A DNA stretch of 11,563 nucleotides from a virus (Duplodnaviria > Heunggongvirae > Uroviricota > Caudoviricetes). Numbering within the stretch: the stretch's first letter is position 1; each line of letters begins with the position of its first letter. Below are positions 1-11,563 of this stretch, piece after piece. The position numbers and the translations under genes were made by a program. The notes beneath the pieces are model-generated. The model did no database searches. It was not told the origin of the DNA and was given only the letters and a program-made list of their open reading frames with translations. The stretch lies in IMG/VR virus record IMGVR_UViG_2627853868_000010; one strand, 5' to 3'.

Positions 1-303
1 TTAACGCGTATTTTTCAGCGACTCCTGTGCAAAATACGCTGTTGCTTTTTTTAATATATCTCGCTCAAGGCGAGCTTCATTTAACGCCTTACGCAGTTGC
101 AGAATTTCAGATTCCAGTTCAGCCACCGTGCGGGAACCAGGAGTACCGAGCCCTTTTCTGGCGGCGGTAACCCATTGTCCTAAAGTGCCTTCAGGAAGGG
201 ATAATCGGGAAGCGCCTTCACTGATCGAAAGTTGATTTTCAAGAACCGTTCTGACAGCTTCGGCTTTGAACTCTTTAGAGTAACGTTGGTTTTTTCTGCT
301 CAT
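1..303 (-). CDS. IS3-family transposase OrfA (helix-turn-helix plus leucine-zipper region)
   Basis: 100-aa ORF MSRKNQRYSKEFKAEAV...ILKKATAYFA, identical to the OrfA at 3758-4060; the C-terminal ILKKATAYFA motif is typical of IS3-family OrfA. Confidence 0.85.
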   Translation of the reverse strand: MSRKNQRYSKEFKAEAVRTVLENQLSISEGASRLSLPEGTLGQWVTAARKGLGTPGSRTVAELESEILQLRKALNEARLERDILKKATAYFAQESLKNTR

Positions 304-367
304 TATTAGCTCCTTCTGATGCCATTCTATTTCAGGAAGGAGTGTCCGTTAAACTCAGGCTACCTCA
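1..367 (-). mobile_element. IS3-family insertion sequence (IS600-like), partial copy; the rest of the element lies left of the window
   Basis: Positions 1-367 mirror 3694-4060 in reverse complement: same terminus TGAGGTAGCCTGAGTTTAACGGACACTCC (element end at 367) and an identical 100-aa OrfA. The window starts exactly at the OrfA stop codon. Confidence 0.85.
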
Positions 368-642
368 CTCCCTGGCGGATTTTTGCAGCGAATACAGCAA
401 CACAACCGGACGGGCAACGGCTACGCGCTTCGCGTTCCGTCCAGGCGGTTACGTGGATGATTTGAGATTCTCCGGCACTCAGTGCCAGAAAACGCCACAC
501 AAAGGCCGTTTGTGTGTGTACAAGGTGTGGTATATGATTTACAGCAACCATAACGGCTCCTAGTTTACGTTGTTGGTTAGACGCCCCGTATGTGTTCCCA
601 GCACTGCGGGGCGTTGCTCTTTGTATTTCAACAATCCTTTCG

Positions 643-722
643 GTGTGTTTCATGTTATGAGCGCATGAAACACACGTCAAGGCTTTTTGTATTTCTTTTT
701 TTGTGTATACTGAAACACACCG
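643..722 (+). promoter_or_regulatory. Candidate promoter/operator of the RHH gene: 12-bp perfect inverted repeat plus a third half-site over a -10-like hexamer
   Basis: GTGTGTTTCATG (643-654) and CATGAAACACAC (664-675) form a perfect inverted repeat with a 9-bp spacer. TGAAACACAC recurs at 711-720, overlapping TATACT (706-711). AGGAG at 729-733 precedes the ATG at 742. The -35 is weak. Confidence 0.3.
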
Positions 723-741
723 ATGATTAGGAGTTTCAGAA

Positions 742-1047
742 ATGGCAACGGCTAACAAAAACGCAAAATCACAACTGACAACTGTCAGAGTCCCACTAGA
801 TGTTATGCAAGGGATGGAATCCGTTAAGCTGGACGGTGAAAGCAATGCCGGATTTATCGTAACCGCCATGCGCGGAGAAATGGCCCGCCGCCAAGCAGAA
901 GGCAGCGGAGAAAATCCCCTTGTGTCGTCACTGGATGCCCTGGCTAAGGTCGAACAAATCGGCATCAAAGCAGCCGAGGAGATCGGGCAACTCGTCACCG
1001 TCGCGCGTGAAGAACTCCAGCGACGCAAGGTCAAAGAGCATGAATAG
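742..1047 (+). CDS. Ribbon-helix-helix (Arc/MetJ/CopG-like) DNA-binding protein with a C-terminal extension; hypothetical
   Basis: 101-aa ORF with an AGGAG RBS 8 nt upstream. The N-terminal segment TTVRVPLDVMQGMESVKLDGESNAGFIVTAM fits the RHH beta-strand/helix/G-x-S-x-N turn/helix pattern (compare Arc EENGRSVNSEIYQRV). Assigned from motif pattern only. Confidence 0.55.
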   Translation: MATANKNAKSQLTTVRVPLDVMQGMESVKLDGESNAGFIVTAMRGEMARRQAEGSGENPLVSSLDALAKVEQIGIKAAEEIGQLVTVAREELQRRKVKEHE

Positions 1048-1104
1048 CCAATATCAGCGCCATAGTTTGAGGAACGCAGGCGCATTGCTTTACAGGACAG
1101 CACC

Positions 1105-1284
1105 ATGAGCGACACAGAATCAACCAAAACACCATCACCAACTCGTAAGAGACGACGCAAAAATATAGCGCATGAACATGAATCAGAAAGATTCGCACCT
1201 TGTTCGTTTGCTCTTGAGAAATTCCTTAAAGAGCACAGGAAAAAGCTCTCGTTGCAAACCTTGGAACGAACCAAATCTGACTGA
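1105..1284 (+). CDS. Small basic hypothetical protein (59 aa), probably co-transcribed with the RHH gene
   Basis: ATG at 1105 with AGGA about 6 nt upstream; translation MSDTESTKTPSPTRKRRRKNIAHEHESERFAPCSFALEKFLKEHRKKLSLQTLERTKSD; stop at 1282-1284. Too short for the supplied ORF track; a + strand terminator lies downstream. Confidence 0.3.
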   Translation: MSDTESTKTPSPTRKRRRKNIAHEHESERFAPCSFALEKFLKEHRKKLSLQTLERTKSD

Positions 1285-1350
1285 TCACATTGCCCACCAG
1301 CCGCAAATGTGGCATTGTTGGTGATGCTTTTGTTTTCCCTTGTTCCCACT

Positions 1351-1380
1351 GGCGACCCTTTTGCGGTCGCCTTTGTTTTG
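1351..1380 (+). terminator. Rho-independent terminator for the + strand two-gene operon
   Basis: GGCGACC-CTTTTGC-GGTCGCC hairpin followed by TTTGTTTTG. Confidence 0.5.
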
Positions 1381-1959
1381 TCACTGAATGCGGTTACCAA
1401 AGTAAAACTCAGGCTGATATTCACGTATCAGCGTTTTTTCTTCTTCCTCCTGCTCACGCTTTTTGCGCTTACATGCCTGTAGCTCCCTCCCCTTCTCGCT
1501 GGCACTTATTTGATATTGCTCTTTACGGCGGGAAAAATCCTGTAATGCACCCCACGGGATACCATAAGTCCCCGTTTTTCTGATACCTGGTATCACATTT
1601 CTGAATACCCAGTTACTGAAACGATGAGCAAATGTGCCAGGCGTCGTTGCTTTGCGGCTGCGGGCTATTAGTTTGTAGAAACCTGACTCAGAGATAATTC
1701 TCATATTCTGATTTCCTCCTGGGGTGTAAGTTAAATTTACTCCCTTTTCATCATCATCAAGCATCTGCAACGCCGTACGCGAATTGGTTAGTTCCAGCGC
1801 AGCACAAACATCTTTTGCAACAAACCACGGATCGCCGTTCAGATACACCACACGAACGTTCACACTATCAAAGCGCAGAACGACGAGATCACGAATATCG
1901 CAGAATTTTTTCACTGGACGAGCGTACCCCTTGCCCGTCACGGCAATATTTTTATTCAT
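1381..1959 (-). CDS. Bro-N domain protein (phage antirepressor-like)
   Basis: 192-aa ORF; the N-terminal region VVYLNGDPWFVAKDVCAALELTNSRTALQMLDDDEKGV...MRIISESGFYKLIARSRKA...FRNVIPGIRKTGTY matches the Bro-N signature (EPWFVAKDV, DEDEKG, ISESGLY, IRKTG); C-terminal part is charged. Confidence 0.75.
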   Translation of the reverse strand: MNKNIAVTGKGYARPVKKFCDIRDLVVLRFDSVNVRVVYLNGDPWFVAKDVCAALELTNSRTALQMLDDDEKGVNLTYTPGGNQNMRIISESGFYKLIARSRKATTPGTFAHRFSNWVFRNVIPGIRKTGTYGIPWGALQDFSRRKEQYQISASEKGRELQACKRKKREQEEEEKTLIREYQPEFYFGNRIQ

Positions 1960-1974
1960 CGCGTTTTTACCTTA

Positions 1975-2002
1975 TAGACAAAAAACCCCTCGTGATGAGG
2001 GG
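1975..2002 (-). terminator. Candidate intrinsic terminator between alpA and the Bro-N gene (minus strand)
   Basis: On the minus strand, hairpin CCCCTC-ATCAC-GAGGGG (plus 1986-2002) followed by TTTTTGTCTAT, lying between the alpA stop (2016) and the Bro-N start (1959). Confidence 0.45.
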
Positions 2003-2015
2003 CATTATTTACTGG

Positions 2016-2273
2016 TTATTGCTGTTTTGTTTTTCCAGGTTTCCATCCAGGATGCCACTCACCACGGATCCATGCCTGAACCTCTGAAAGTCGATACCCT
2101 GCAGCACGTTCACCGATCTTGATACGTCGCGGGAATTTACCTGCCTGCTCCATTTTCCAGCGTGTTGAGTTTGCCAGCGTGGTAAGTGCTATGCACTCTT
2201 TTTCACGAATGAACCGATCAATGTCCTTCATTGTGCGCAAATCGTTTTCATCAACAAGAGAATAAATTGCCAT
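2016..2273 (-). CDS. alpA: AlpA-family prophage transcriptional regulator (HTH, excisionase-like)
   Basis: 85-aa ORF; ALTTLANSTRWKMEQAGKFPRRIKIGERAAGYRLSEVQAWI matches the AlpA/Phage_AlpA pattern. Its ATG at 2273 is 1 nt from the integrase stop (TGA at 2275-2277). Confidence 0.8.
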   Translation of the reverse strand: MAIYSLVDENDLRTMKDIDRFIREKECIALTTLANSTRWKMEQAGKFPRRIKIGERAAGYRLSEVQAWIRGEWHPGWKPGKTKQQ

Positions 2274-2427
2274 ATCACACCACCTCTTTATTAAGCTCGA
2301 TAACGTTGTTGTTAAATCCTGCTATCGTATTAAGGTAATTAACCCACATATTAAGCACCTCAAGTTTTTTCTTTATATGCCTGCTTTTATTGTAAACACC
2401 AGCAACCCCTTTCACTTTATGACCTAA

Positions 2428-2436
2428 AAGAAGTTC
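2428..2436. repeat. 9-bp target-site duplication AAGAAGTTC of IS1 (left copy)
   Basis: Identical 9-mer at 2428-2436 and 3205-3213, directly flanking IS1. Confidence 0.9.
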
Positions 2437-2451
2437 GGTAATGACTCCAAC

Positions 2452-2955
2452 TTATTGATAGTGTTTTATGTTCAGATAATGCCCGATGACTTTGTCATGC
2501 AGCTCCACCGATTTTGAGAACGACAGCGACTTCCGTCCCAGCCGTGCCAGGTGCTGCCTCAGATTCAGGTTATGCCGCTCAATTCGCTGCGTATATCGCT
2601 TGCTGATTACGTGCAGCTTTCCCTTCAGGCGGGATTCATACAGTGGCCAGCCATCCGTCATCCATATCACCACGTCAAAGGGTGACAGCAAGCTCATAAG
2701 ACGCCCCAGCGTCGCCATAGTGCGTTCACCGAATACGTGCGCAACAACCGTCTTCCGGAGCCTGTCATACGCGTAAAACAGCCAGCGCTGGCGCGATTTA
2801 GCCCCGACGTATCCCCACTGTTCGTCCATTTCCGCGCAGACGATGACGTCACTGCCCGGCTGTATGCGCGAGGTTACCGACTGCGGCCTGAGTTTTTTAA
2901 GTGACGTAAAATCGTGTTGAGGCTAACGCCCATAATGCGTGCAGTTGCCCGGCAT
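2452..2955 (-). CDS. insB: IS1 InsB frame (made as the InsAB' fusion by -1 frameshift)
   Basis: The track ORF 2452-2829 encodes the canonical InsB C-terminal 125 aa ([16 protein letters not shown]...NIKHYQ). The frame extends upstream to about 2955. An in-frame TAG replaces the Trp codon of HYGRW, but this lies upstream of the frameshift site and need not inactivate InsAB'. Confidence 0.7.
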
Positions 2956-3149
2956 CCAACGCCATTCATGGCCATATCAATAATTTTCTGGTGCGTACCG
3001 GGTTGAGAAGCGGTGTAAGTGAACTGCAGTTGCCATGTTTTACGGCAGTGAGAGCAGAGATAGCGCTGATGTCCGGCAGTGCTTTTGCCGTTACGCACCA
3101 CCCCGTCAGTAGCTGAACAGGAGGGACAGCTGATAGAAACAGAAGCCAC
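2874..3149 (-). CDS. insA: IS1 InsA (transposition repressor / N-terminal part of InsAB' transposase)
   Basis: 91-aa [43 protein letters not shown]... (zinc-finger CPSC/CSHC); ends in the A6C frameshift window. Differs from the other copy at several residues (e.g. GVSLNT vs GVGLNT). Confidence 0.9.
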
Positions 3150-3204
3150 TGGAGCACCTCAAAAACACCATCATACACTAAATCAGTAAGTTGGCAGCAT
3201 CACC

Positions 3205-3213
3205 AAGAAGTTC
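3205..3213. repeat. 9-bp target-site duplication AAGAAGTTC of IS1 (right copy)
   Basis: Same 9-mer as 2428-2436. Confidence 0.9.
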
Positions 3214-3757
3214 GACAATATAAGGATCCGCCCCCATATCATTAAGCGTAGTGGAAAATGTGCGCCTGAAATCATGTATGCACCACAAGCCATTAGTATC
3301 ATGACCAAGACGCCTGCATATTCTGTTTGCAGCCCCTGTTATTGTCGCCCTTTGCAAAGCACAACCGACAACATAACCGCGATTTTTTGTTTCTGCGTAA
3401 AGATTAACGATCCATTGTTTTATTCCGTCAGGAACAGGCCTTACTATAGCCTCCTTGTTTTTGCTGTGCTCTTTTGGGACTGTCCATACCCAGTTTTTTA
3501 AATCCCATTCGTCCCAGGTGGATAGCCTCGCCTCCTGCTGTCGGCAACCAAACACCAGGCAGATAACCATTATTCTTCGGTTATATATTGATGACAGAGT
3601 TAGCAAATTATTACCGTAAGCATAAGACCATACATCAGCGGTTTCATTGATATTAAGAACGCGATCCCTTATACCGGATGAGCGCCCGACATATGAGGTA
3701 GCCTGAGTTTAACGGACACTCCTTCCTGAAATAGAATGGCATCAGAAGGAGCTAATA

Positions 3758-4060
3758 ATGAGCAGAAAAAACCAACGTTACTCTAAAGAGTTCAAAGCCG
3801 AAGCTGTCAGAACGGTTCTTGAAAATCAACTTTCGATCAGTGAAGGCGCTTCCCGATTATCCCTTCCTGAAGGCACTTTAGGACAATGGGTTACCGCCGC
3901 CAGAAAAGGGCTCGGTACTCCTGGTTCCCGCACGGTGGCTGAACTGGAATCTGAAATTCTGCAACTGCGTAAGGCGTTAAATGAAGCTCGCCTTGAGCGA
4001 GATATATTAAAAAAAGCAACAGCGTATTTTGCACAGGAGTCGCTGAAAAATACGCGTTAA
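3758..4060 (+). CDS. IS3-family transposase OrfA
   Basis: 100-aa ORF identical to the one at 1-303; AGGAG RBS upstream of the ATG. Confidence 0.9.
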   Translation: MSRKNQRYSKEFKAEAVRTVLENQLSISEGASRLSLPEGTLGQWVTAARKGLGTPGSRTVAELESEILQLRKALNEARLERDILKKATAYFAQESLKNTR

Positions 4061-4095
4061 TCGAACAATGGCGACAACAATTTCCCATTGAAGCG

Positions 4096-4914
4096 ATGTG
4101 TCAGGTATTTGGTGTATCCAGGAGCGGTTATTACAACTGGGTACAGCATGAACCCTCAGACAGAAAACAAAGTGATGAGCGGCTAAAACTGGAGATTAAG
4201 GTGGCACATATCCGCACTCGCGAAACATATGGAACCCGGCGGCTCCAGACGGAGCTGGCAGAGAATGGCATCATCGTTGGTCGTGACCGACTGGCACGTC
4301 TTCGTAAGGAGCTAAGGCTACGCTGTAAGCAGAAACGCAAGTTCAGAGCGACTACGAACCCGAACCACAATCTGCCAGTTGCGCCAAATCTGCTGAACCA
4401 GACGTTCGCTCCTACAGCACCAAATCAGGTCTGGGTGGCGGACCTGACGTATGTTGCCACACAGGAGGGATGGTTGTACCTCGCTGGCATCAAAGATGTT
4501 TATACGTGCGAAATTGTCGGCTACGCCATGGGAGAGCGCATGACAAAAGAGCTGACAGGTAAAGCCCTGTTTATGGCGCTCAGGAGCCAGCGCCCACCTG
4601 CCGGGCTAATCCACCACTCTGATCGAGGTTCACAGTACTGCGCATACGATTACCGGGTCATACAGGAGCAGTCTGGTCTGAAAACATCAATGTCGCGTAA
4701 AGGTCACTGTTACGACAACGCTCCGATGGAAAGCTTCTGGGGAACGCTGAAAAATGAGAGCCTGAGCCACTATCGTTTTAATAACCGGGATGAAGCCATC
4801 TCAGTAATACGGGAATACATTGAGATTTTCTACAATCGTCAGCGTCGTCACTCTCGTCTGGGGAATATCTCCCCGGCAGCCTTCAGGGAAAAATATCATC
4901 AGATGGCTGCTTAA
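4096..4914 (+). CDS. IS3-family transposase OrfB (DDE integrase-like catalytic domain; probably made as OrfAB by -1 frameshift)
   Basis: 272-aa ORF with DDE-type motifs (VWVADLTYV, HHSDRGSQY, CYDNAPMESFWGTLK); its frame begins just after the OrfA stop. Confidence 0.85.
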   Translation: MCQVFGVSRSGYYNWVQHEPSDRKQSDERLKLEIKVAHIRTRETYGTRRLQTELAENGIIVGRDRLARLRKELRLRCKQKRKFRATTNPNHNLPVAPNLLNQTFAPTAPNQVWVADLTYVATQEGWLYLAGIKDVYTCEIVGYAMGERMTKELTGKALFMALRSQRPPAGLIHHSDRGSQYCAYDYRVIQEQSGLKTSMSRKGHCYDNAPMESFWGTLKNESLSHYRFNNRDEAISVIREYIEIFYNRQRRHSRLGNISPAAFREKYHQMAA

Positions 4915-4938: not shown

Positions 4939-6327
4939 CTATTGCCAGTACACCTCACAGTACATTGACCAGGATTTCGAGCTGTTATTTTTCTCAATTC
5001 GCAGAGCTTTATTGCCGCTGTCATCAACCAGTGTGCGTCTGCCATACATACCGTCCCAGCCATAAGGTTTCAGCTGATTGTCTGTAGCTTTTTTGGCATC
5101 GTAAAAAATTACAGACTCTGAGGTGGTAACCGGCCTGTCTGGAACAACCACCCCGGCAGTACCATTAACAAACGCAGAAGACTTACCCGCGCAGCTCAGA
5201 ATCGCCGTTGCCAGACGGTCGGAAATAATCCCACGGCGAGCCCATGAACTGAAATGGCTCGCCCTGTCCTGTGACGTCCAGGTGGCTGAGCTGTCACGCC
5301 ATTTCGAACCGTAATAACCGATACCCGGAATGTCCGGGTCTTCTTCCGGTTTGTTCGTCGGCACATTCACCCCGTTCTCATCGGTCATGAACGGTACGAA
5401 ATGGATATTCTTTTCCGTTTTATTTTTATAGCTGCCGTACACCGTCTGGTACGTGGATTCGTTCTTCTGCTTCCAGAAATACGTCGTGTCCCCGCATATC
5501 CAGGGAACACCGCCAGCAGAGCCACCGACGCACTGGCCTGCCATATCCGCCAGGTCTGCACGGAATTTATCAACCAGCGCACCAAACTGTGCGGCATGAT
5601 TTGCCGGCGTACCGCCAAAATCAAATTCCCCCTGCATCCACACCACGGCAAACAGCACATTTTTCGGGTTCTTCTCCAGTGCCGCTTTTGTTCGACCGAT
5701 AAGGTCCTTATACAGCGGCTTGTCCACACCCCAGCGGGTTGAATTCTCCGAGGCACCACTCGCGTCACTGTATGTGCCATCAGCTCCGGTGGTGAACGCT
5801 GAACCACCACGACAGCATGGAACCAGCAGAATGCCCGCATTCGCCGGTATAAACGGCAGCAGTTTTTTGGCGATATGCAGCCCCTGCCCCACGGTTCCGT
5901 ACTGCCCCTTTGACAGGTCCGCTTTCGGATGGTTAAGACGGCTCATGTCCTGCACATCATGCAGACAATGGTCCGCCGGAATGATGTCGTTATATTTGCA
6001 TGCTGCACCGCCCGGTGTCACCGTACTGCGACGCGCCAGTTGCTTAATACGCGGGTCCGGACGGTCATATGTCCCCGGCAGCGGAAGGCCTTCACCATAC
6101 GACATGCCGTTTGACTGCCCTGCCAGAACCACAACAAAGTAATACTCCGGGTCGCTGGTGGCGCTGATTACTGCACCTTCTGCTGCAATCGCCTGCATCA
6201 GAGTATAAGGGGTTATGGCCACCGGACTACCAAACGGCTGCCAGCCCTCTTTCAGTTTATGTGTCAGCTTTTCCGCAAGATCTGACGGCGACGCCGCCCT
6301 GACAACATCATAGTGTTTAAAAGCCAT
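4939..6327 (-). CDS. nanS: Prophage sialate O-acetylesterase (NanS-p-like; DUF1737 N-domain plus SGNH/DUF303 esterase domain), 3'-truncated by IS600
   Basis: 462-aa ORF with GGAGG RBS. Motifs VLAGQSNGMSYGEGLPLP, RIKQLARRSTVTPGG, YGTVGQ, LLPFIP, VPCCRGGSAFT, SHFSSWARRGIISDR match NanS/YjhS-type esterases as I recall them. The last 6 codons (CEVYWQ) and the stop are read from the IS600 end (4939-4957). Confidence 0.8.
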   Translation of the reverse strand: MAFKHYDVVRAASPSDLAEKLTHKLKEGWQPFGSPVAITPYTLMQAIAAEGAVISATSDPEYYFVVVLAGQSNGMSYGEGLPLPGTYDRPDPRIKQLARRSTVTPGGAACKYNDIIPADHCLHDVQDMSRLNHPKADLSKGQYGTVGQGLHIAKKLLPFIPANAGILLVPCCRGGSAFTTGADGTYSDASGASENSTRWGVDKPLYKDLIGRTKAALEKNPKNVLFAVVWMQGEFDFGGTPANHAAQFGALVDKFRADLADMAGQCVGGSAGGVPWICGDTTYFWKQKNESTYQTVYGSYKNKTEKNIHFVPFMTDENGVNVPTNKPEEDPDIPGIGYYGSKWRDSSATWTSQDRASHFSSWARRGIISDRLATAILSCAGKSSAFVNGTAGVVVPDRPVTTSESVIFYDAKKATDNQLKPYGWDGMYGRRTLVDDSGNKALRIEKNNSSKSWSMYCEVYWQ

Positions 6328-6549: not shown

Positions 6550-6776
6550 GCCCACAAGAAAGCCCCTCCGGAGAGGGGCTGGAGAGTGGCGCTATGTGCC
6601 ATTGCATGGTGCCGGGTGCCTCCCGGTGAATTCAGTACCAGCACCTGAATCCGCGATTATCCCATATACCTACTCGCTGATTGCCCCTCCGCACAGGGGG
6701 ATTCACCATGCCAGTTTCTTTTAACAAACTCCCCGCAAACCAGACAACAGTCAACCGTCTGAATTGTGAGACATTT

Positions 6777-6801
6777 AAAAAAAAAGCCCGCAAAAGCGAG
6801 C
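6777..6801 (-). terminator. Strong Rho-independent terminator just downstream of the tRNA cluster (minus strand)
   Basis: On the minus strand, GCTCGC-TTTT-GCGGGC hairpin (one G-U pair) followed by nine T, starting 15 nt after the 3' end of tRNA-Arg(UCU). Confidence 0.55.
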
Positions 6802-6816
6802 CAGGGAAAATAAGTG

Positions 6817-6893
6817 TGGCGCGTTGTACTGGATTCGAACCAGTGACCGATTGCTTAGAAGGCAATTGCTCTGTCCGGCTGAGCTAACAACGC
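6817..6893 (-). tRNA. argO: tRNA-Arg (anticodon UCU), prophage-encoded
   Basis: Minus-strand 77-nt cloverleaf GCGTTGT-TA-GCTC-AGCCGGACA-GAGC-A-ATTGC-CTTCTAA-GCAAT-CGGTC-ACTGG-TTCGAAT-CCAGT-ACAACGC-G-CCA. Perfect 7-bp acceptor stem, encoded CCA. Gene symbol assigned by position in the cluster. Confidence 0.85.
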
Positions 6894-6906
6894 ATGATGC
6901 AGATAA

Positions 6907-6983
6907 TGGACCGCCATCGGGGACTTGAACCCCGCGCAGCCAGCTTCGAAGGCTGGCGCTCTTTCCTGATGAGCTAATGGCGG
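6907..6983 (-). tRNA. argN: tRNA-Arg (anticodon UCG), prophage-encoded
   Basis: Minus-strand 77-nt cloverleaf CCGCCAT-TA-GCTC-ATCAGGAAA-GAGC-G-CCAGC-CTTCGAA-GCTGG-CTGCG-CGGGG-TTCAAGT-CCCCG-ATGGCGG-T-CCA. Gene symbol assigned by position in the cluster. Confidence 0.8.
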
Positions 6984-6990
6984 TATGTGA

Positions 6991-7066
6991 TGGTGGCCCT
7001 TGCTGGATTTGAACCAGCGACCTGGCGATTATGAGTCGCTCGCTCTCACCACTGAGCTAAAGGGCC
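6991..7066 (-). tRNA. ileZ: tRNA-Ile2 (anticodon CAU, ileX-like; reads AUA after lysidine modification), prophage-encoded
   Basis: Minus-strand 76-nt sequence GGCCCTTTAGCTCAGTGGTGAGAGCGAGCGACTCATAATCGCCAGGTCGCTGGTTCAAATCCAGCAAGGGCCACCA, near-identical to E. coli ileX as I recall it; anticodon loop CTCATAA. Confidence 0.85.
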
Positions 7067-7075
7067 GGGAGCCGC

Positions 7076-7104
7076 ATAATAACGACTCGTAATTAATTCT
7101 TCAA
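7076..7104 (-). promoter_or_regulatory. Candidate sigma70 promoter for the tRNA cluster
   Basis: On the minus strand, TTGAAG, a 17-bp spacer, then TATTAT, ending 9 nt before the 5' end of tRNA-Ile2; the -35 lies directly after the methyltransferase stop codon. Confidence 0.45.
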
Positions 7105-7106
7105 TA

Positions 7107-8124
7107 TCATCCGTTCTGGCTGACTAAATCCTGTACTTCCCGAACCGTCTGCTCAAAACGTTCAGTCTCCAGCTCAACGCCAATTGCACGACGCCCGAGC
7201 GCCAGTGCCGCTTTCACTGTCGAACCCGACCCCATGAAAAAATCTGCAATCAGGTCACCCGGACGACTGCTAGCGCTGATTATCTGCTGCAGCATTTCTG
7301 CCGGTTTTTCGCACGGATGTTTCCCGGGATAGAACTGCACCGGTTTATGCGTCCACACATCGGTATACGGCACCTGCACCGTCACGCCAAAATACCGCCG
7401 CAGATGTTTATATTCACTCAGCAGCTCCGCATACTGCCGGTTCAGTGAGGTATACGTATCCACCAGCTGGTGGTGGAGCTTTTCCAGTTCACCACGCCGA
7501 TGCTTCTCTTCTGCCACCCGGGCAAACAGCGCCTGTAATTTCAGATAATCGCTTTCATTCGGCAACTGCCACTGACTGGCACTGAACCAGTGCGACACCA
7601 TGTTTTTCTTTCCTGTGGCATCTGCAATCTGTTTTGCCGTTATCCCCAGGGCAGCTCGCGCATCACGAAAGTAAGAAATCAGCGGGGCCATCACATGCTG
7701 TTTCAGTGCACTGCCCTTCGCCGCATACCCGGCATCTTTCGGACGATACGGCCCCTGATAATGTTCCGCGAACAGAATGCGCTCTGTGGCGGGGAAATAC
7801 GCCCGCAGGCTTTCCTTGTTGCATCCGTTCCAGCGTCCGGACGGCTTCGCCCAGATAATATGGTTCAGCACACTGAAGCGTTCACGCATCATGATTTCGA
7901 TATCAGATGCCAGGCGATGACCACAGAACAGGTAAAGACTTCCGGCAGGTTTCAGCACCCGCCAGAACTGCGCCAGACACTGGTCCAGCCACTTCAGGTA
8001 ATCATCGTCGCCCTTCCACTGGTTATCCCAGCCCTCAGGCTTCACTTTAAAGTACGGCGGGTCCGTGACTATCAGGTCAACAGAATTTTCGGGTAACGAC
8101 CAGATAAATTCCAGGCAGTCGGCG
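7107..8124 (-). CDS. DNA N6-adenine/N4-cytosine methyltransferase (beta-class; DPPY precedes FxGxG), prophage Dam-like orphan MTase; native 5' end removed by IS1
   Basis: Native coding sequence starts at the IS1 junction with ADCLEFIWSLPENSVDLIVTDPPYF (motif IV) and ends with DLIADFFMGSGST...GRRAIGVELE (motif I). No native start codon remains; the frame stays open upstream through IS1/IS2 sequence to 8282. Confidence 0.8.
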
Positions 8125-8142
8125 GGTAATGACTCCAACTTA

Positions 8143-8147
8143 CTGAT
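8143..8147. repeat. 5-bp target-site duplication CTGAT of IS2 (left copy; right copy at 9479-9483)
   Basis: CTGAT immediately flanks both IS2 ends; both copies lie within IS1 terminal sequence. Confidence 0.85.
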
Positions 8148-8238
8148 TAGACTGGCCCCCTGAATCTCCAGACAACCAGTATCACTTAAATAAGTGATAG
8201 TCTTAATACTAGTTTTTAGACTAGTCATTGGAGTACAG

Positions 8239-8604
8239 ATGATTGATGTCTTAGGGCCGGAGAAACGCAGACGGCGTACCACACAGGAAAAGATCGCAAT
8301 TGTTCAGCAGAGCTTTGAACCGGGGATGACGGTCTCCCTCGTTGCCCGGCAACATGGTGTAGCAGCCAGCCAGTTATTTCTCTGGCGTAAGCAATACCAG
8401 GAAGGAAGTCTTACTGCTGTGGCCGCCGGAGAACAGGTTGTTCCTGCCTCTGAACTTGCTGCCGCCATGAAGCAGATTAAAGAACTCCAGCGCCTGCTCG
8501 GCAAGAAAACGATGGAAAATGAACTCCTCAAAGAAGCCGTTGAATATGGACGGGCAAAAAAGTGGATAGCGCACGCGCCCTTATTGCCCGGGGATGGGGA
8601 GTAA
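8239..8604 (+). CDS. insC: IS2 transposase OrfA (InsC)
   Basis: [56 protein letters not shown]... matches IS2 InsC as recalled; ATG at 8239. Confidence 0.9.
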
Positions 8605-9467
8605 GCTTAGTCAGCCGTTGTCTCCGGGTGTCGCGTGCGCAGTTGCACGTCATTCTCAGACGAACCGATGACTGGATGGATGGCCGCCGCAGTCGTCACA
8701 CTGATGATACGGATGTGCTTCTCCGTATACACCATGTTATCGGAGAGCTGCCCACGTATGGTTATCGTCGGGTATGGGCGCTGCTTCGCAGACAGGCAGA
8801 ACTTGATGGTATGCCTGCGATCAATGCCAAACGTGTTTACCGGATCATGCGCCAGAATGCGCTGTTGCTTGAGCGAAAACCTGCTGTACCGCCATCGAAA
8901 CGGGCACATACAGGCAGAGTGGCCGTGAAAGAAAGCAATCAGCGATGGTGCTCTGACGGGTTCGAGTTCTGCTGTGATAACGGAGAGAGACTGCGTGTCA
9001 CGTTCGCGCTGGACTGCTGTGATCGTGAGGCACTGCACTGGGCGGTGACTACCGGCGGCTTCAACAGTGAAACAGTACAGGACGTCATGCTGGGAGCGGT
9101 GGAACGCCGCTTCGGCAACGATCTTCCGTCGTCTCCAGTGGAGTGGCTGACGGATAATGGTTCATGCTACCGGGCTAATGAAACACGCCAGTTCGCCCGG
9201 ATGTTGGGACTTGAACCGAAGAACACGGCGGTGCGGAGTCCGGAGAGTAACGGAATAGCAGAGAGCTTCGTGAAAACGATAAAGCGTGACTACATCAGTA
9301 TCATGCCCAAACCAGACGGGTTAACGGCAGCAAAGAACCTTGCAGAGGCGTTCGAGCATTATAACGAATGGCATCCGCATAGTGCGCTGGGTTATCGCTC
9401 GCCACGGGAATATCTGCGGCAGCGGGCTTGTAATGGGTTAAGTGATAACAGATGTCTGGAAATATAG
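8562..9467 (+). CDS. insD: IS2 transposase OrfB (InsD; DDE catalytic domain)
   Basis: 301-aa [33 protein letters not shown]...WLTDNGSCY...[12 protein letters not shown], matching IS2 InsD as recalled; overlaps insC in the -1 frame. Confidence 0.9.
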
Positions 9468-9979
9468 GGGCAAATCCACTGATAGTGTTTTATGTTCAGA
9501 TAATGCCCGATGACCTTGTCATGCAGCTCCACCGATTTTGAGAACGACAGTGACTTCCGTCCCAGCCTTGCCAGATGTTGTCTCAGATTCAGATTATGTC
9601 GCTCAATGCGCTGAGTGTAACGCTTGCTGATAACGTGCAGCTTTCCCTTCAGGCGTGATTCATACAGCGGCCAGCCATCCGTCATCCATACCACGACCTC
9701 AAAGGCCGACAGCAGGCTCAGAAGACGCTCCAGTGTGGCCAGAGTGCGTTCACCGAAGACGTGCGCCACAACCGTCCTCCGTATCCTGTCATACGCGTAA
9801 AACAGCCAGCGCTGACGTGATTTAGCACCGACGTAGCCCCACTGTTCGTCCATTTCAGCGCAGACAATCACATCACTGCCCGGTTGTATGCGCGAGGTTA
9901 CCGACTGCGGCCTGAGTTTTTTAAGTGACGTAAAACCGTGTTGAGGCCAACGCCCATAATGCGTGCACTGGCGCGACAT
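9392..9979 (-). CDS. insB: IS1 InsB (copy 2) with its stop codon lost to the IS2 insertion; the ORF reads 31 extra codons into IS2
   Basis: 195-aa ORF ...[44 protein letters not shown]...NIKHYQ followed by [28 protein letters not shown] read from the IS2 right end. The native InsB part is 9479-9979. Confidence 0.8.
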
Positions 9980-10173
9980 CCGACGCCATTCATGGCCATA
10001 TCAATGATTTTCTGGTGCGTACCGGGCTGAGAGGCGGTGTAAGTGAACTGTAGTTGCCATGTTTTACGGCAATGAGAGCAGAGATAGCGCTGATGTCCGG
10101 CAGTGCTTTTGCCGTTACGCACCACGCCTTCAGTAGCGGAGCAGGAAGGACATCTGATGGAAATGGAAGCCAC
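9898..10173 (-). CDS. insA: IS1 InsA (copy 2, divergent isoform)
   Basis: 91-aa [43 protein letters not shown]...; differs from the copy at 2874-3149 at several residues. Confidence 0.9.
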
Positions 10174-10228
10174 GCAAGCACCTTAAAATCACCATCATAC
10201 ACTAAATCAGTAAGTTGGCAGCATTACC

Positions 10229-10476
10229 CGCTCGACGAGTGGAAACCAAAACGGTTCAGTCTCCCAATAACAAACACTACCCTGGTGAAATACGGAAAAC
10301 TAGGATACATCGTTCCAAGACCACAAAAAATTCGTGGGCGTTGGCTGATAGATCGCCGAGCAGTATTTGTTGGGCCTGGTGAAACGGGAATTGCGCCGGA
10401 AATTCATACTGGCGATGATGATGCACTGAAGGAGATTTTAACTCATGTCACCGAGGCCACAAAAAAACAGCACTGA
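10229..10476 (+). CDS. xis: Lambda-type excisionase (Xis)-like, 5'-truncated at the IS1 junction
   Basis: Native sequence from 10229 reads (P)LDEWKPKRFSLPITNTTLVKYGKLGYIVPRPQKIRGRWLIDRRAVFV..., which aligns with lambda Xis (MYLTLQEWNARQRRPRSLETVRRWVRECRIFPPPVKDGREYLF) as recalled. About 4 N-terminal codons and the start are missing. The 3' end overlaps the int start as in lambda. Confidence 0.55.
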
Positions 10477-11563
10477 CGTAGCCGGTCTTTACGAAAAGTT
10501 TGATCGCAGAACTGGCAGAGTTTACTACCAGTATAAAAATCCTGTGACTGGAAAATTTCACGGACTCGGAACAGACAAAGGTAAGGCAGAAAAAATCGCT
10601 TCCACAGCCAATCAGCGAATAGCTGCAGCAGAAGCTGAATATTTCATGCGCAAAATTGATGAAAGTCCGTCAGCAACAAAACGTCGGGGTATCAGATTAA
10701 AGGCATGGGTTGATCGATATCTGAAAATACAGGACACGCGACTGAAAAATGGAGATATTGCAGCTACAACTCACAAAGAAAAAACTCGAATGGCTGCATA
10801 CCTAGTTTCCCGTCTGGGAAACCACCCATTGAAAGAACTGGAAGTAAGAGACTTTGCATTAATACTGGATGAGTGGCTGGATAAAGACATGGTCAGCACA
10901 GCGAGAGTAAATCGTGGATTATGGGTTGATATTTATAAAGAAGCACAGCATGCAGGGGAAGTTCCTCCTGGATGGAATCCTCCGGAGGCTACCCGTAAAC
11001 CGATCCCTAAAGTAACCAGAGCCAGGCTCACCATGGAAGACTGGCAAAAAATTTACAATGCAACGCCTGAAAAACACTTTATCCGTAACGCAATGCTTCT
11101 TGCGATTGTTACTGGTCAGCGCCGTGATGACATTTGCCACATGCGTTTTTCAGATGTGTGGAACGAACACTTGCATATCACCCAGGGAAAAACCGGAATG
11201 CGTCTGGCGTTACCGCTTACACTACGCTGTGATGCCATTGGGATAACGTTAAAAGAAGTTATTGATGGGTGCCGAGACAGAATATTAAGTCCATATCTAA
11301 TCCATAGTCGGCACCAGAAACAACCGAAGCCGATGAGTAAAGACAACCTGAGCGACTACTTTGCCAAAGCACGGGATCTGGCTGGGATAATTCCACCAGC
11401 AGGAAAAACTCCGCCAACATTTCATGAACAACGCTCTCTATCAGAACGGCTGTACCGTGCACAGGGTATCGATACAAAAACATTACTAGGACATAAAGTC
11501 CAGGCAACCACCGATCGCTATAACGATACTCGAGGTCAGGAATGGGTTAAGCTGGTTATTTGA
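10445..11563 (+). CDS. int: Lambda-family tyrosine integrase (site-specific recombinase), complete
   Basis: 372-aa ORF with AGGAG RBS. N-terminal YYQYKNPVTGKFHGLGTDK, central LAIVTGQRRDDICHMRFSDV, and C-terminal PPTFHEQRSLSERLY...LLGHKVQATTDRYNDTRGQEWVKLVI match lambda/HK022 Int (R, H-x-x-R, LLGH, catalytic Y) as recalled. The window ends at its stop codon. Confidence 0.9.
   Translation: MSPRPQKNSTDVAGLYEKFDRRTGRVYYQYKNPVTGKFHGLGTDKGKAEKIASTANQRIAAAEAEYFMRKIDESPSATKRRGIRLKAWVDRYLKIQDTRLKNGDIAATTHKEKTRMAAYLVSRLGNHPLKELEVRDFALILDEWLDKDMVSTARVNRGLWVDIYKEAQHAGEVPPGWNPPEATRKPIPKVTRARLTMEDWQKIYNATPEKHFIRNAMLLAIVTGQRRDDICHMRFSDVWNEHLHITQGKTGMRLALPLTLRCDAIGITLKEVIDGCRDRILSPYLIHSRHQKQPKPMSKDNLSDYFAKARDLAGIIPPAGKTPPTFHEQRSLSERLYRAQGIDTKTLLGHKVQATTDRYNDTRGQEWVKLVI

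Follow-up and report, generated by a model that had tools for sequence, protein, structure and literature searches.

A 5'-truncated prophage adenine methyltransferase gene in frame with IS1 and IS2 sequence in Shigella

The adenine methyltransferase M.EcoGII, described in 2018, is non-specific and acts in any sequence context (PMC5778455). It was shown that the lysogen does not express M.EcoGII, and that constitutive expression gives slow-growing and unstable clones (PMC5778455). For M.EcoGI, 333 of 349 identical residues were reported, and phage 1720a-02 was named as the carrier of a very similar methyltransferase (PMC5778455). This paper will deal with a gene of the same family in a stretch of 11,563 nucleotides (IMG/VR virus record IMGVR_UViG_2627853868_000010), which is called the window below and to which all positions refer unless another locus is named.

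Like M.EcoGII, the enzyme encoded in the window has the motif order of the beta class and is an orphan without a restriction partner. Helices occupy the central region in the AlphaFold models of both the chimeric product and an intact relative, as predicted for the central domain of M.EcoGII (PMC11551740). A 349-aa homologue is present in E. coli O104:H4, in a prophage of the same type at the same potC site. Unlike in M.EcoGII, however, the first 14 residues, the start codon, the upstream region and the Q-dependent late-operon position have been replaced here by codons derived from IS1 and IS2.

In Stx-converting and other lambdoid phages (1720a-02, Stx2a phages, phiP27), methyltransferases 88-95% identical to the one in the window were identified, with 95% identity for phage 1720a-02 and the Stx2a phages. 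In these phages the gene is located between Q and the tRNA/stx region, and the same tRNA Ile/Arg/Arg cluster and a SASA (NanS-p-like) esterase gene come after it. In contrast to these phages, the phage in the window is a non-inducible remnant, without stx and with the early region and Q absent. Its esterase gene is shortened and lies beside another IS.

Hybrid promoters created by insertion sequences are known for IS2-ampC, IS1-blaTEM and IS2/IS1-acrEF (PMC9330008), and there, as in the window, an IS end lies directly 5' of a promoterless gene. In the window, however, it is the left end of IS2 which faces the gene, no correctly spaced -35/-10 pair was found, and the coding sequence is truncated, which is not the case in the activating insertions. 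Among the solved beta-class methyltransferases, M.RsrI (1eg2, 1nw8), CcrM (6pbd), M.MboIIA (1g60) and the entries 8urk and 9c3u share the Rossmann-fold halves with DPPY and FxGxG (E = 6e-24 to 1e-14). They are distant relatives, matching only the two halves of the catalytic domain; the named enzymes are site-specific, and none of the structures has a central domain of the M.EcoGII type.

Enzyme family and the native part of the gene

In the Pfam scan, PF01555 (N6_N4_Mtase) was the sole match (E = 4e-43; residues 68-379 of the 391-aa ORF), and in NCBIfam only beta-class models were matched, all of them far under their cut-offs. DPPY comes first and FxGxG last, which is the order of the beta class; the Dam family profile (Pfam MethyltransfD12) was not matched in the Pfam scan, and the motif order is not that of the alpha class (FxGxG first, DPPY last). 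In the comparison to M.EcoGII, the closest relative that has been characterised, 314 of 343 aligned residues (92%) are identical, covering native residues 15-352, and this value is a lower bound, the reference sequence having been machine-read from Table S1 of PMC11551740 with at least two evident errors. By this homology, the enzyme is assigned to the beta-class adenine methyltransferases of the M.EcoGI/M.EcoGII family. A preliminary description of the locus had called it 'Dam-like'; with PF01555 as the only match, DPPY before FxGxG and the close similarity to M.EcoGII, it is not a GATC Dam, and the label is wrong. The same description had regarded the gene as an orphan, which is supported by the absence of a restriction gene nearby.

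In the comparison to the methyltransferase from the potC prophage in O104:H4, 322 of 338 native residues were found to be identical. That enzyme in turn is about 94-95% identical to M.EcoGII, a figure which fits the one reported for M.EcoGI, and it may be either of the two. The family is commonplace, and the gene was matched in 2684 of 5426 complete E. coli genomes.

In a nucleotide comparison, homology to the intact alleles of E. coli O121 and many other E. coli begins at position 8124. The intact O121 allele starts with MLNTVKISSCELINADCLEF; 13 codons and 2 nt of the gene, including the ATG, are missing in the window, together with everything upstream. The 338 native codons contain neither a frameshift nor a stop, and the catalytic and SAM-binding motifs are all present, motif IV (DPPY) being placed towards the N-terminus and motif I (FMGSGS) towards the C-terminus (TDPPY at residues 55-59 and FFMGSGS at residues 330-336 in the numbering of the 373-aa ORF). 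Two substitutions in the native part, P230L and V306I, fall in strongly conserved columns, and no others do; the first of them was also identified in P0016, an allele whose N-terminus is intact.

The N-terminus, which in the family reads MxNTVKISSxELIN, is incomplete here. Of 43 full-length relatives, all share Asn14 and 42 share Leu12, and Ser9, Val5, Thr4 and Asn3 are nearly invariant. The chimera has Pro for Asn at position 14 and Ser for Leu at position 12, and its replacement N-terminus contains, by chance, an I-S-x-x-E which lines up with the native ISSCE. For an intact relative, AlphaFold predicted strands at residues 4-7 and 10-13, with mean pLDDT values of 80 and 89 for the first two 10-residue blocks. 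For the chimera, pLDDT is below 50 at residues 15-36; in its replacement N-terminus, a short strand is still drawn with low confidence. Both models are of modest overall quality, with mean pLDDT values of 61.9 (chimera) and 71.4 (intact relative). They are based on shallow alignments of 43-45 sequences, and they were used only for the secondary structure of the N-terminus and for local confidence, not for stability. According to the models, the N-terminal beta-hairpin with the invariant Asn is lost, by which a conserved structural element is predicted to be missing. Any product would probably be structurally compromised.

Prophage context and the two insertion sequences

The region is a decayed lambdoid prophage remnant next to potC in a Shigella chromosome (Table 1). 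In related genomes, chromosomal potC lies beyond the integrase gene. In E. coli O104:H4 str. 2009EL-2071, the same int-xis pair adjoining potC (99.85% identity) heads an apparently intact prophage, in which int, xis, exo, early genes, RusA, an antitermination protein and a 65-aa ORF occur in this order. This ORF is followed by the 349-aa DNA methyltransferase, tRNA-Ile/Arg/Arg, the SASA esterase and holin. The window aligns to the O104:H4 locus at 20001-21335 (int, xis) and at 37507-40014 (methyltransferase codon 14 onward); the match of xis ends at 21335 of that locus, where xis is annotated at 21088-21357. Compared to the O104:H4 prophage, 16.2 kb are missing between xis and methyltransferase codon 14, including the Q-type antiterminator, and IS1::IS2 is present in their place.

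Table 1. Coordinates of the features in and around the methyltransferase ORF of the window
Feature	Position	Strand	Remarks
tRNA-Arg(UCU)	6817-6893	-	ARAGORN, Rfam, RefSeq of relatives
tRNA-Arg(UCG)	6907-6983	-	ARAGORN, Rfam, RefSeq of relatives
tRNA(CAU)	6991-7066	-	tRNA-Ile in the annotation of relatives; ARAGORN, Rfam, RefSeq of relatives
Native methyltransferase part, assigned to the M.EcoGI/M.EcoGII family, beta class	7107-8124	-	last base of codon 14 to stop; 338 native residues
IS1 right inverted repeat, last 23 bp	8125-8147	-	exact match to GGTAATGACTCCAACTTA; ORF reads through
IS2 left end, antisense part of the ORF	8148-8282	-	135 bp; carries ATG 8228-8226 and GTG 8282-8280
IS2, complete, 1331 bp, inside IS1	8148-9478	+	left end (IRL, inward promoter) adjoins the methyltransferase gene
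IS1 main body, 750 bp	9479-10228	-	NCBIfam transpos_IS1; left inverted repeat at 10228
xis, first 22 nt missing, cut by the same IS1	10229-10476	+	99.85% match to the O104:H4 potC prophage
Lambda-type integrase	10445-11563	+	Pfam Arm-DNA-bind_1 and Phage_integrase

In four of four intact loci examined, the methyltransferase gene follows the gene for the antitermination protein and a small ORF and precedes the tRNAs. In lambdoid phages, genes downstream of Q belong to the Q-dependent late transcript. This position therefore makes the methyltransferase gene a Q-dependent late gene. In the window, the location of the family downstream of Q is lost and the one upstream of the tRNA cluster is kept. 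The phage tRNA cluster (6817-7066, minus strand) lies directly 3' of the methyltransferase gene and has its own promoter-like site at 7104-7076.

The IS1 adjoining the gene is a complete element which was split by a later insertion of IS2. The preliminary description had identified a 23-bp IS1 fragment at the junction. While this sequence is indeed an IS1 terminal repeat, it is not a stray piece but the end of a whole 768-bp IS1. A 5-bp target duplication, CTGAT (+) / ATCAG (-), is present on either side of IS2 at 8143-8147 and 9479-9483, and IS1 without IS2 and without one of the 5-bp copies amounts to exactly 768 bp. The IS1 rebuilt in this way is 91% identical to a second IS1 of the window at 2437-3204. 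For the ORFs of IS2, the NCBIfam models 'IS2 repressor TnpA' (275.8 bits) and 'IS2 transposase TnpB' (727.6 bits) were matched. The genes insA and insB of the split IS1 share the minus strand with the methyltransferase gene.

The flanks of the split IS1, ACTCGTCGAGCG versus CGCCGACTGCCT, are not a target duplication; the flanking sequences read …TCGTCGAGCG and CGCCGACTGCC…. For the second IS1 (2437-3204), a clean 9-bp duplication was found, with GAACTTCTT on both sides. The deletion is likely to have arisen by an IS1-mediated adjacent deletion or by recombination between two IS1 copies. The insB ORF of the split IS1 (9392-9979) is itself extended accidentally over the IS1/IS2 junction at 9479 into IS2.

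Reading frame and expression signals

The ORF at 7107-8282 on the minus strand comprises 391 codons before the stop, as obtained by translation of the window. The first native methyltransferase codon is GCC at 8123-8121 (minus strand). An in-frame TTG at 8138-8136 is located 5 codons 5' of this GCC, and the ATG and GTG within the IS2 part (Table 1) are located 35 and 53 codons 5' of it; following the frame further upstream, a stop (TGA, 8306-8304) is reached. In the preliminary description, a methyltransferase without its own start was reported, with a frame remaining open through the 23 bp of IS1 and 135 bp of IS2. Both statements agree with the results obtained here, since native sequence begins at 8124 with the ATG missing and the translation runs through both elements. 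The junction residues, ...GASLISKLESLPADCLEFIWSLPENSVDLIVTDPPY, were reproduced by translation, and the coordinates given for ATG 8228 and GTG 8282 are right, the nearer in-frame TTG 8138 having been overlooked.

Three frames can be read outward over the terminal IS1 sequence and the adjoining left end of IS2. In one of them no stop occurs for 60 codons, and the remaining two are shut after 6-8 codons. The prior for an open frame is therefore about 1 in 3, and the openness of the frame is about what is expected by chance. Start-type and stop-type codons are equally frequent, with 3/64 each. It follows that about half of all 5'-truncated genes should reach an in-frame start before a stop.

In a scan for sigma-70-like promoters on the minus strand, no site was identified between 8125 and about 9590. 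Promoter-like sites on this strand are present at 10221-10194 (the IS1 promoter region), at 9621-9593 (inside IS1) and after the methyltransferase stop, at the site named above for the tRNA cluster. Read-through from IS1 would need to cross 1.3 kb of antisense IS2. By eye, a sub-threshold TTAAGA-17 nt-GATACT (8/12) was seen at about 8167-8195 (minus strand), 5' of TTG 8138, and was not counted as evidence. For the TTGGAG in the IS1 end, no -10 at a spacing of 16-18 nt was seen by eye, and transcription from a promoter formed with it would begin 3' of each of the three candidate starts.

At the left end of IS3-family elements, the native promoter points into the element, and it is the right end which contributes the outward -35 of hybrid promoters (PMC9330008, PMC12095673). 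The argument from the orientation of IS2 rests on these two publications and on general knowledge of IS3-family elements. The methyltransferase gene faces the left end, and in the promoter scan neither an outward -35 nor a full promoter with a correctly spaced -10 was found in the adjoining IS end. The IS-driven expression which had been suggested for the gene is not supported, given the inward promoter of this left end and the lack of a sigma-70-like site in the scanned stretch from 8125 to about 9590.

By anti-SD pairing, no Shine-Dalgarno sequence better than background was found at the three candidate starts. The values are +0.9 kcal/mol for ATG 8228, +0.3 kcal/mol for GTG 8282 and -2.1 kcal/mol, at 16-nt spacing, for TTG 8138, compared to a median of -2.5 kcal/mol for the background of the window and -5.9 kcal/mol for the start of IS2 orfA on the opposite strand. 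The remark in the preliminary description that no clear Shine-Dalgarno precedes the ATG is in line with the first of these values, and its grading of the IS-methyltransferase chimera as tentative was appropriate. Since the native methyltransferase start also has a weak Shine-Dalgarno, with -3.3 kcal/mol, a poor one is not proof of an untranslated ORF.

Interpretation and deposited records

The ORF is most probably a silent, fortuitously open pseudogene remnant of a prophage methyltransferase, which is called as a gene by annotation pipelines. IS1 lies between the 5'-truncated xis and methyltransferase codon 14, some 16 kb of the prophage have been lost, Q among them, and IS2 inserted later, 23 bp from the IS1 end. 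The methyltransferase gene has been left without a promoter, ribosome-binding region, start codon and first 14 residues. The frame happens to continue for 60 codons into the end of IS1 and antisense IS2, leading gene finders to call a 'DNA methylase' of 373 aa or 343 aa; this extension is most likely fortuitous. Little or no transcription of the gene is expected, a product, if made at all, would occur at trace level, and loss of activity is likewise presumed. That the remnant is still present is probably explained by the young age of Shigella pseudogenes, and perhaps also by its linkage to the intact tRNA cluster.

Instead of a silent remnant, a working chimera might be produced by low-level read-through or cryptic transcription, with translation starting at TTG 8138 or ATG 8228 and a low, tolerated level of non-specific adenine methylation as the result. 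This would be in agreement with the intact ORF and its complete set of motifs, with the weak Shine-Dalgarno of the native gene, and with the acceptance of the ORF as a protein by annotation pipelines. As sources of a transcript, the upstream insA/insB on the same strand with the promoter-like site at 10221-10194 and the sub-threshold TTAAGA-17 nt-GATACT upstream of TTG 8138 could be considered. However, no promoter passes the scan, the 1.3 kb of antisense IS2 to be crossed are untranslated, and neither the beta-hairpin nor the invariant Asn14 is retained. In addition, constitutive activity in the M.EcoGII family is deleterious (PMC5778455), and the open frame itself is expected by chance in 1 of 3 cases. 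A functional chimera of this kind is therefore regarded as unlikely. Its strong form, a constitutive, low-level and sequence-independent m6A 'noise' methylase in the S. boydii lineage which is uncoupled from phage induction, is very unlikely.

It was also considered whether the IS arrangement has been selected for expression through an outward or hybrid promoter of IS2/IS1, as is the case for IS2 and ampC or acrEF. The fixation of the arrangement in at least seven genomes speaks for this, but fixation in a clonal lineage is possible without selection. IS1 and IS2 are both documented makers of fusion promoters (PMC9330008), but the outward -35 of the IS3 family is at the right end, whereas here the left end faces the gene (PMC9330008, PMC12095673). 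The TTGGAG of the IS1 end has no correctly spaced -10 and would place the transcription start downstream of the candidate codons, the promoter scan was negative, and the IS1 event, which took 16 kb of the prophage, resembles ordinary prophage decay. Selection for expression is hence hardly to be expected. An equally slim chance is given to a product which is made but enzymatically dead, perhaps binding SAM or DNA or dimerising, with no methylation phenotype. The loss of the N-terminal hairpin and of the invariant Asn14 would agree with such a protein, and beta-class enzymes are dimeric; residues 97-110 and 116-140, which form the dimer interface in M.EcoGII (PMC11551740), are kept here. However, its expression signals would be equally absent, and there is no pointer to any function for it.

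Read as a pseudogene remnant, the locus is a textbook case of the decay of a Shigella prophage by insertion sequences, and as such it matters little. If an active non-specific chimera were nevertheless produced, it could blunt restriction barriers or disturb Dam-dependent regulation. An active constitutive chimera would be moderately interesting, given the harm done by constitutive expression of full-length M.EcoGII. In a literature search for Shigella methylomes showing extra m6A, nothing relevant was found.

Among 5,426 complete E. coli genomes, no record covering at least 80% of positions 6800-8700 was identified, a result which pointed to Shigella, a group outside that collection. An exact-pattern scan of species-representative genomes for the IS1-methyltransferase junction gave 0 matches, a result which is silent on its spread among other Shigella strains. 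The exact 373-aa product starting at ATG 8228 was identified on 13 contigs; CP026866, CP026867, CP026872, CP026795 and CP041513 are examples of chromosomes with the exact ORF. In all of the seven loci with this product which were examined, the order is potC-int-IS1::IS2-methyltransferase. The 1.9 kb around the junction are identical or 2 SNPs apart in six of the seven loci, and in the seventh a 1-bp indel is also apparent in the tRNA region, well away from the ORF. Seven sequenced chromosomes have the same junction and the same ORF; this was dropped as a sign of selection, with a divergence of only 0-2 SNPs in 1.9 kb. For the native part compared to intact alleles, dN/dS is 0.08-0.15, and for the intact O121 allele compared to the other two intact alleles it is 0.12-0.13. 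These values reflect the history before the truncation and were dropped as evidence in either direction.

The ORF is already in the public record, where it is read as an ordinary gene. The 373-aa product was deposited as SPZ86614.1, 'DNA methylase [Shigella boydii]', and the 343-aa form starting at TTG 8138 (P0017, MESLPADC...) as 'DNA-methyltransferase [Shigella boydii]'. P0017 is a variant allele, differing in one residue, from another S. boydii genome. This calls for caution, as an annotation which borrows the start codon of an IS makes a 5'-truncated gene look like an intact 'DNA methylase'. SPZ86614.1 and P0017 are best read as truncated or chimeric.

Possible relationship to the M.EcoGI locus

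The intact counterpart of the window prophage, located at potC in both cases, is found in E. coli O104:H4 str. 2009EL-2071, and its 349-aa methyltransferase shares about 94-95% identity with M.EcoGII. For M.EcoGI, an identity of 333/349 to M.EcoGII has been published (PMC5778455), a value with which the O104:H4 sequence agrees. On the basis of the shared potC site and this fit, the Shigella remnant may thus be an orthologue of the M.EcoGI prophage locus.

That there is also an allele with a native start and nearly identical to the Shigella one is shown by P0016, a 386-aa protein from a 2,026-bp contig of a Logan assembly. After its intact N-terminus, P0016 is the same as the window allele, except for R in place of W at native residue 22, until a 34-residue internal duplication is reached; the source contig is probably mis-assembled. 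Residue 22 is variable, being Arg or Gln in M.EcoGII and the E. coli sequences compared, while the codon at 8058-8060 (-) specifies Trp in the window allele (EFIWSLP). This Trp may be the result of a substitution later than the truncation.

Surroundings of the methyltransferase remnant

The features of the surrounding sequence are listed in the table. The prophage piece bearing the tRNAs may have survived due to its rare-codon tRNAs, with the methyltransferase remnant as a hitch-hiker, which is a conjecture. A further IS has apparently cut off the 3' part of the esterase ORF, because this ORF is shorter than the 617 aa present in the intact prophages (L001 and L012, the latter being the O104:H4 locus) and ends beside an IS3-family element, the ORF sizes of which would be compatible with IS600. 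The extended insB ORF is, besides the methyltransferase ORF, the second accidental ORF extension resulting from one IS2 insertion.

Region 1-3606

Window positions 1-3606 constitute a second mobile-element remnant, unrelated to the first. In related genomes cheA/cheW come next after this remnant, which places the region at an IS-mediated chromosomal rearrangement.

Features of the window and of the intact O104:H4 counterpart
Feature	Position	Strand	Remark
IS3-family orfA, another	1-303	-	second remnant
354-aa ORF	360-1424	-	second remnant; no Pfam match
Bro-N protein	1381-1959	-	second remnant
AlpA-type regulator	2016-2273	-	second remnant
IS1	2437-3204		second remnant; clean 9-bp duplication GAACTTCTT
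Integrase fragment	3178-3606	-	second remnant
IS3-family element	3758-4914	+	ORFs of 100 aa and 272 aa; adjoins esterase ORF end
DUF1737+SASA (NanS-p-like) esterase ORF	4939-6327	-	462 aa
sRNA family STnc100	6550-6740	-	full-length match, 139 bits; next after tRNA cluster
Phage tRNA cluster	within 6550-7104	-	intact; tRNA-Ile2-type CAU, Arg-UCG, Arg-UCU
Promoter-like site	7104-7076	-	belongs to tRNA cluster
Extended IS1 insB ORF	9392-9979	-	195 aa; crosses IS1/IS2 junction (9479) into IS2 right end
Methyltransferase, 349 aa	L012 37466-38515		O104:H4 counterpart
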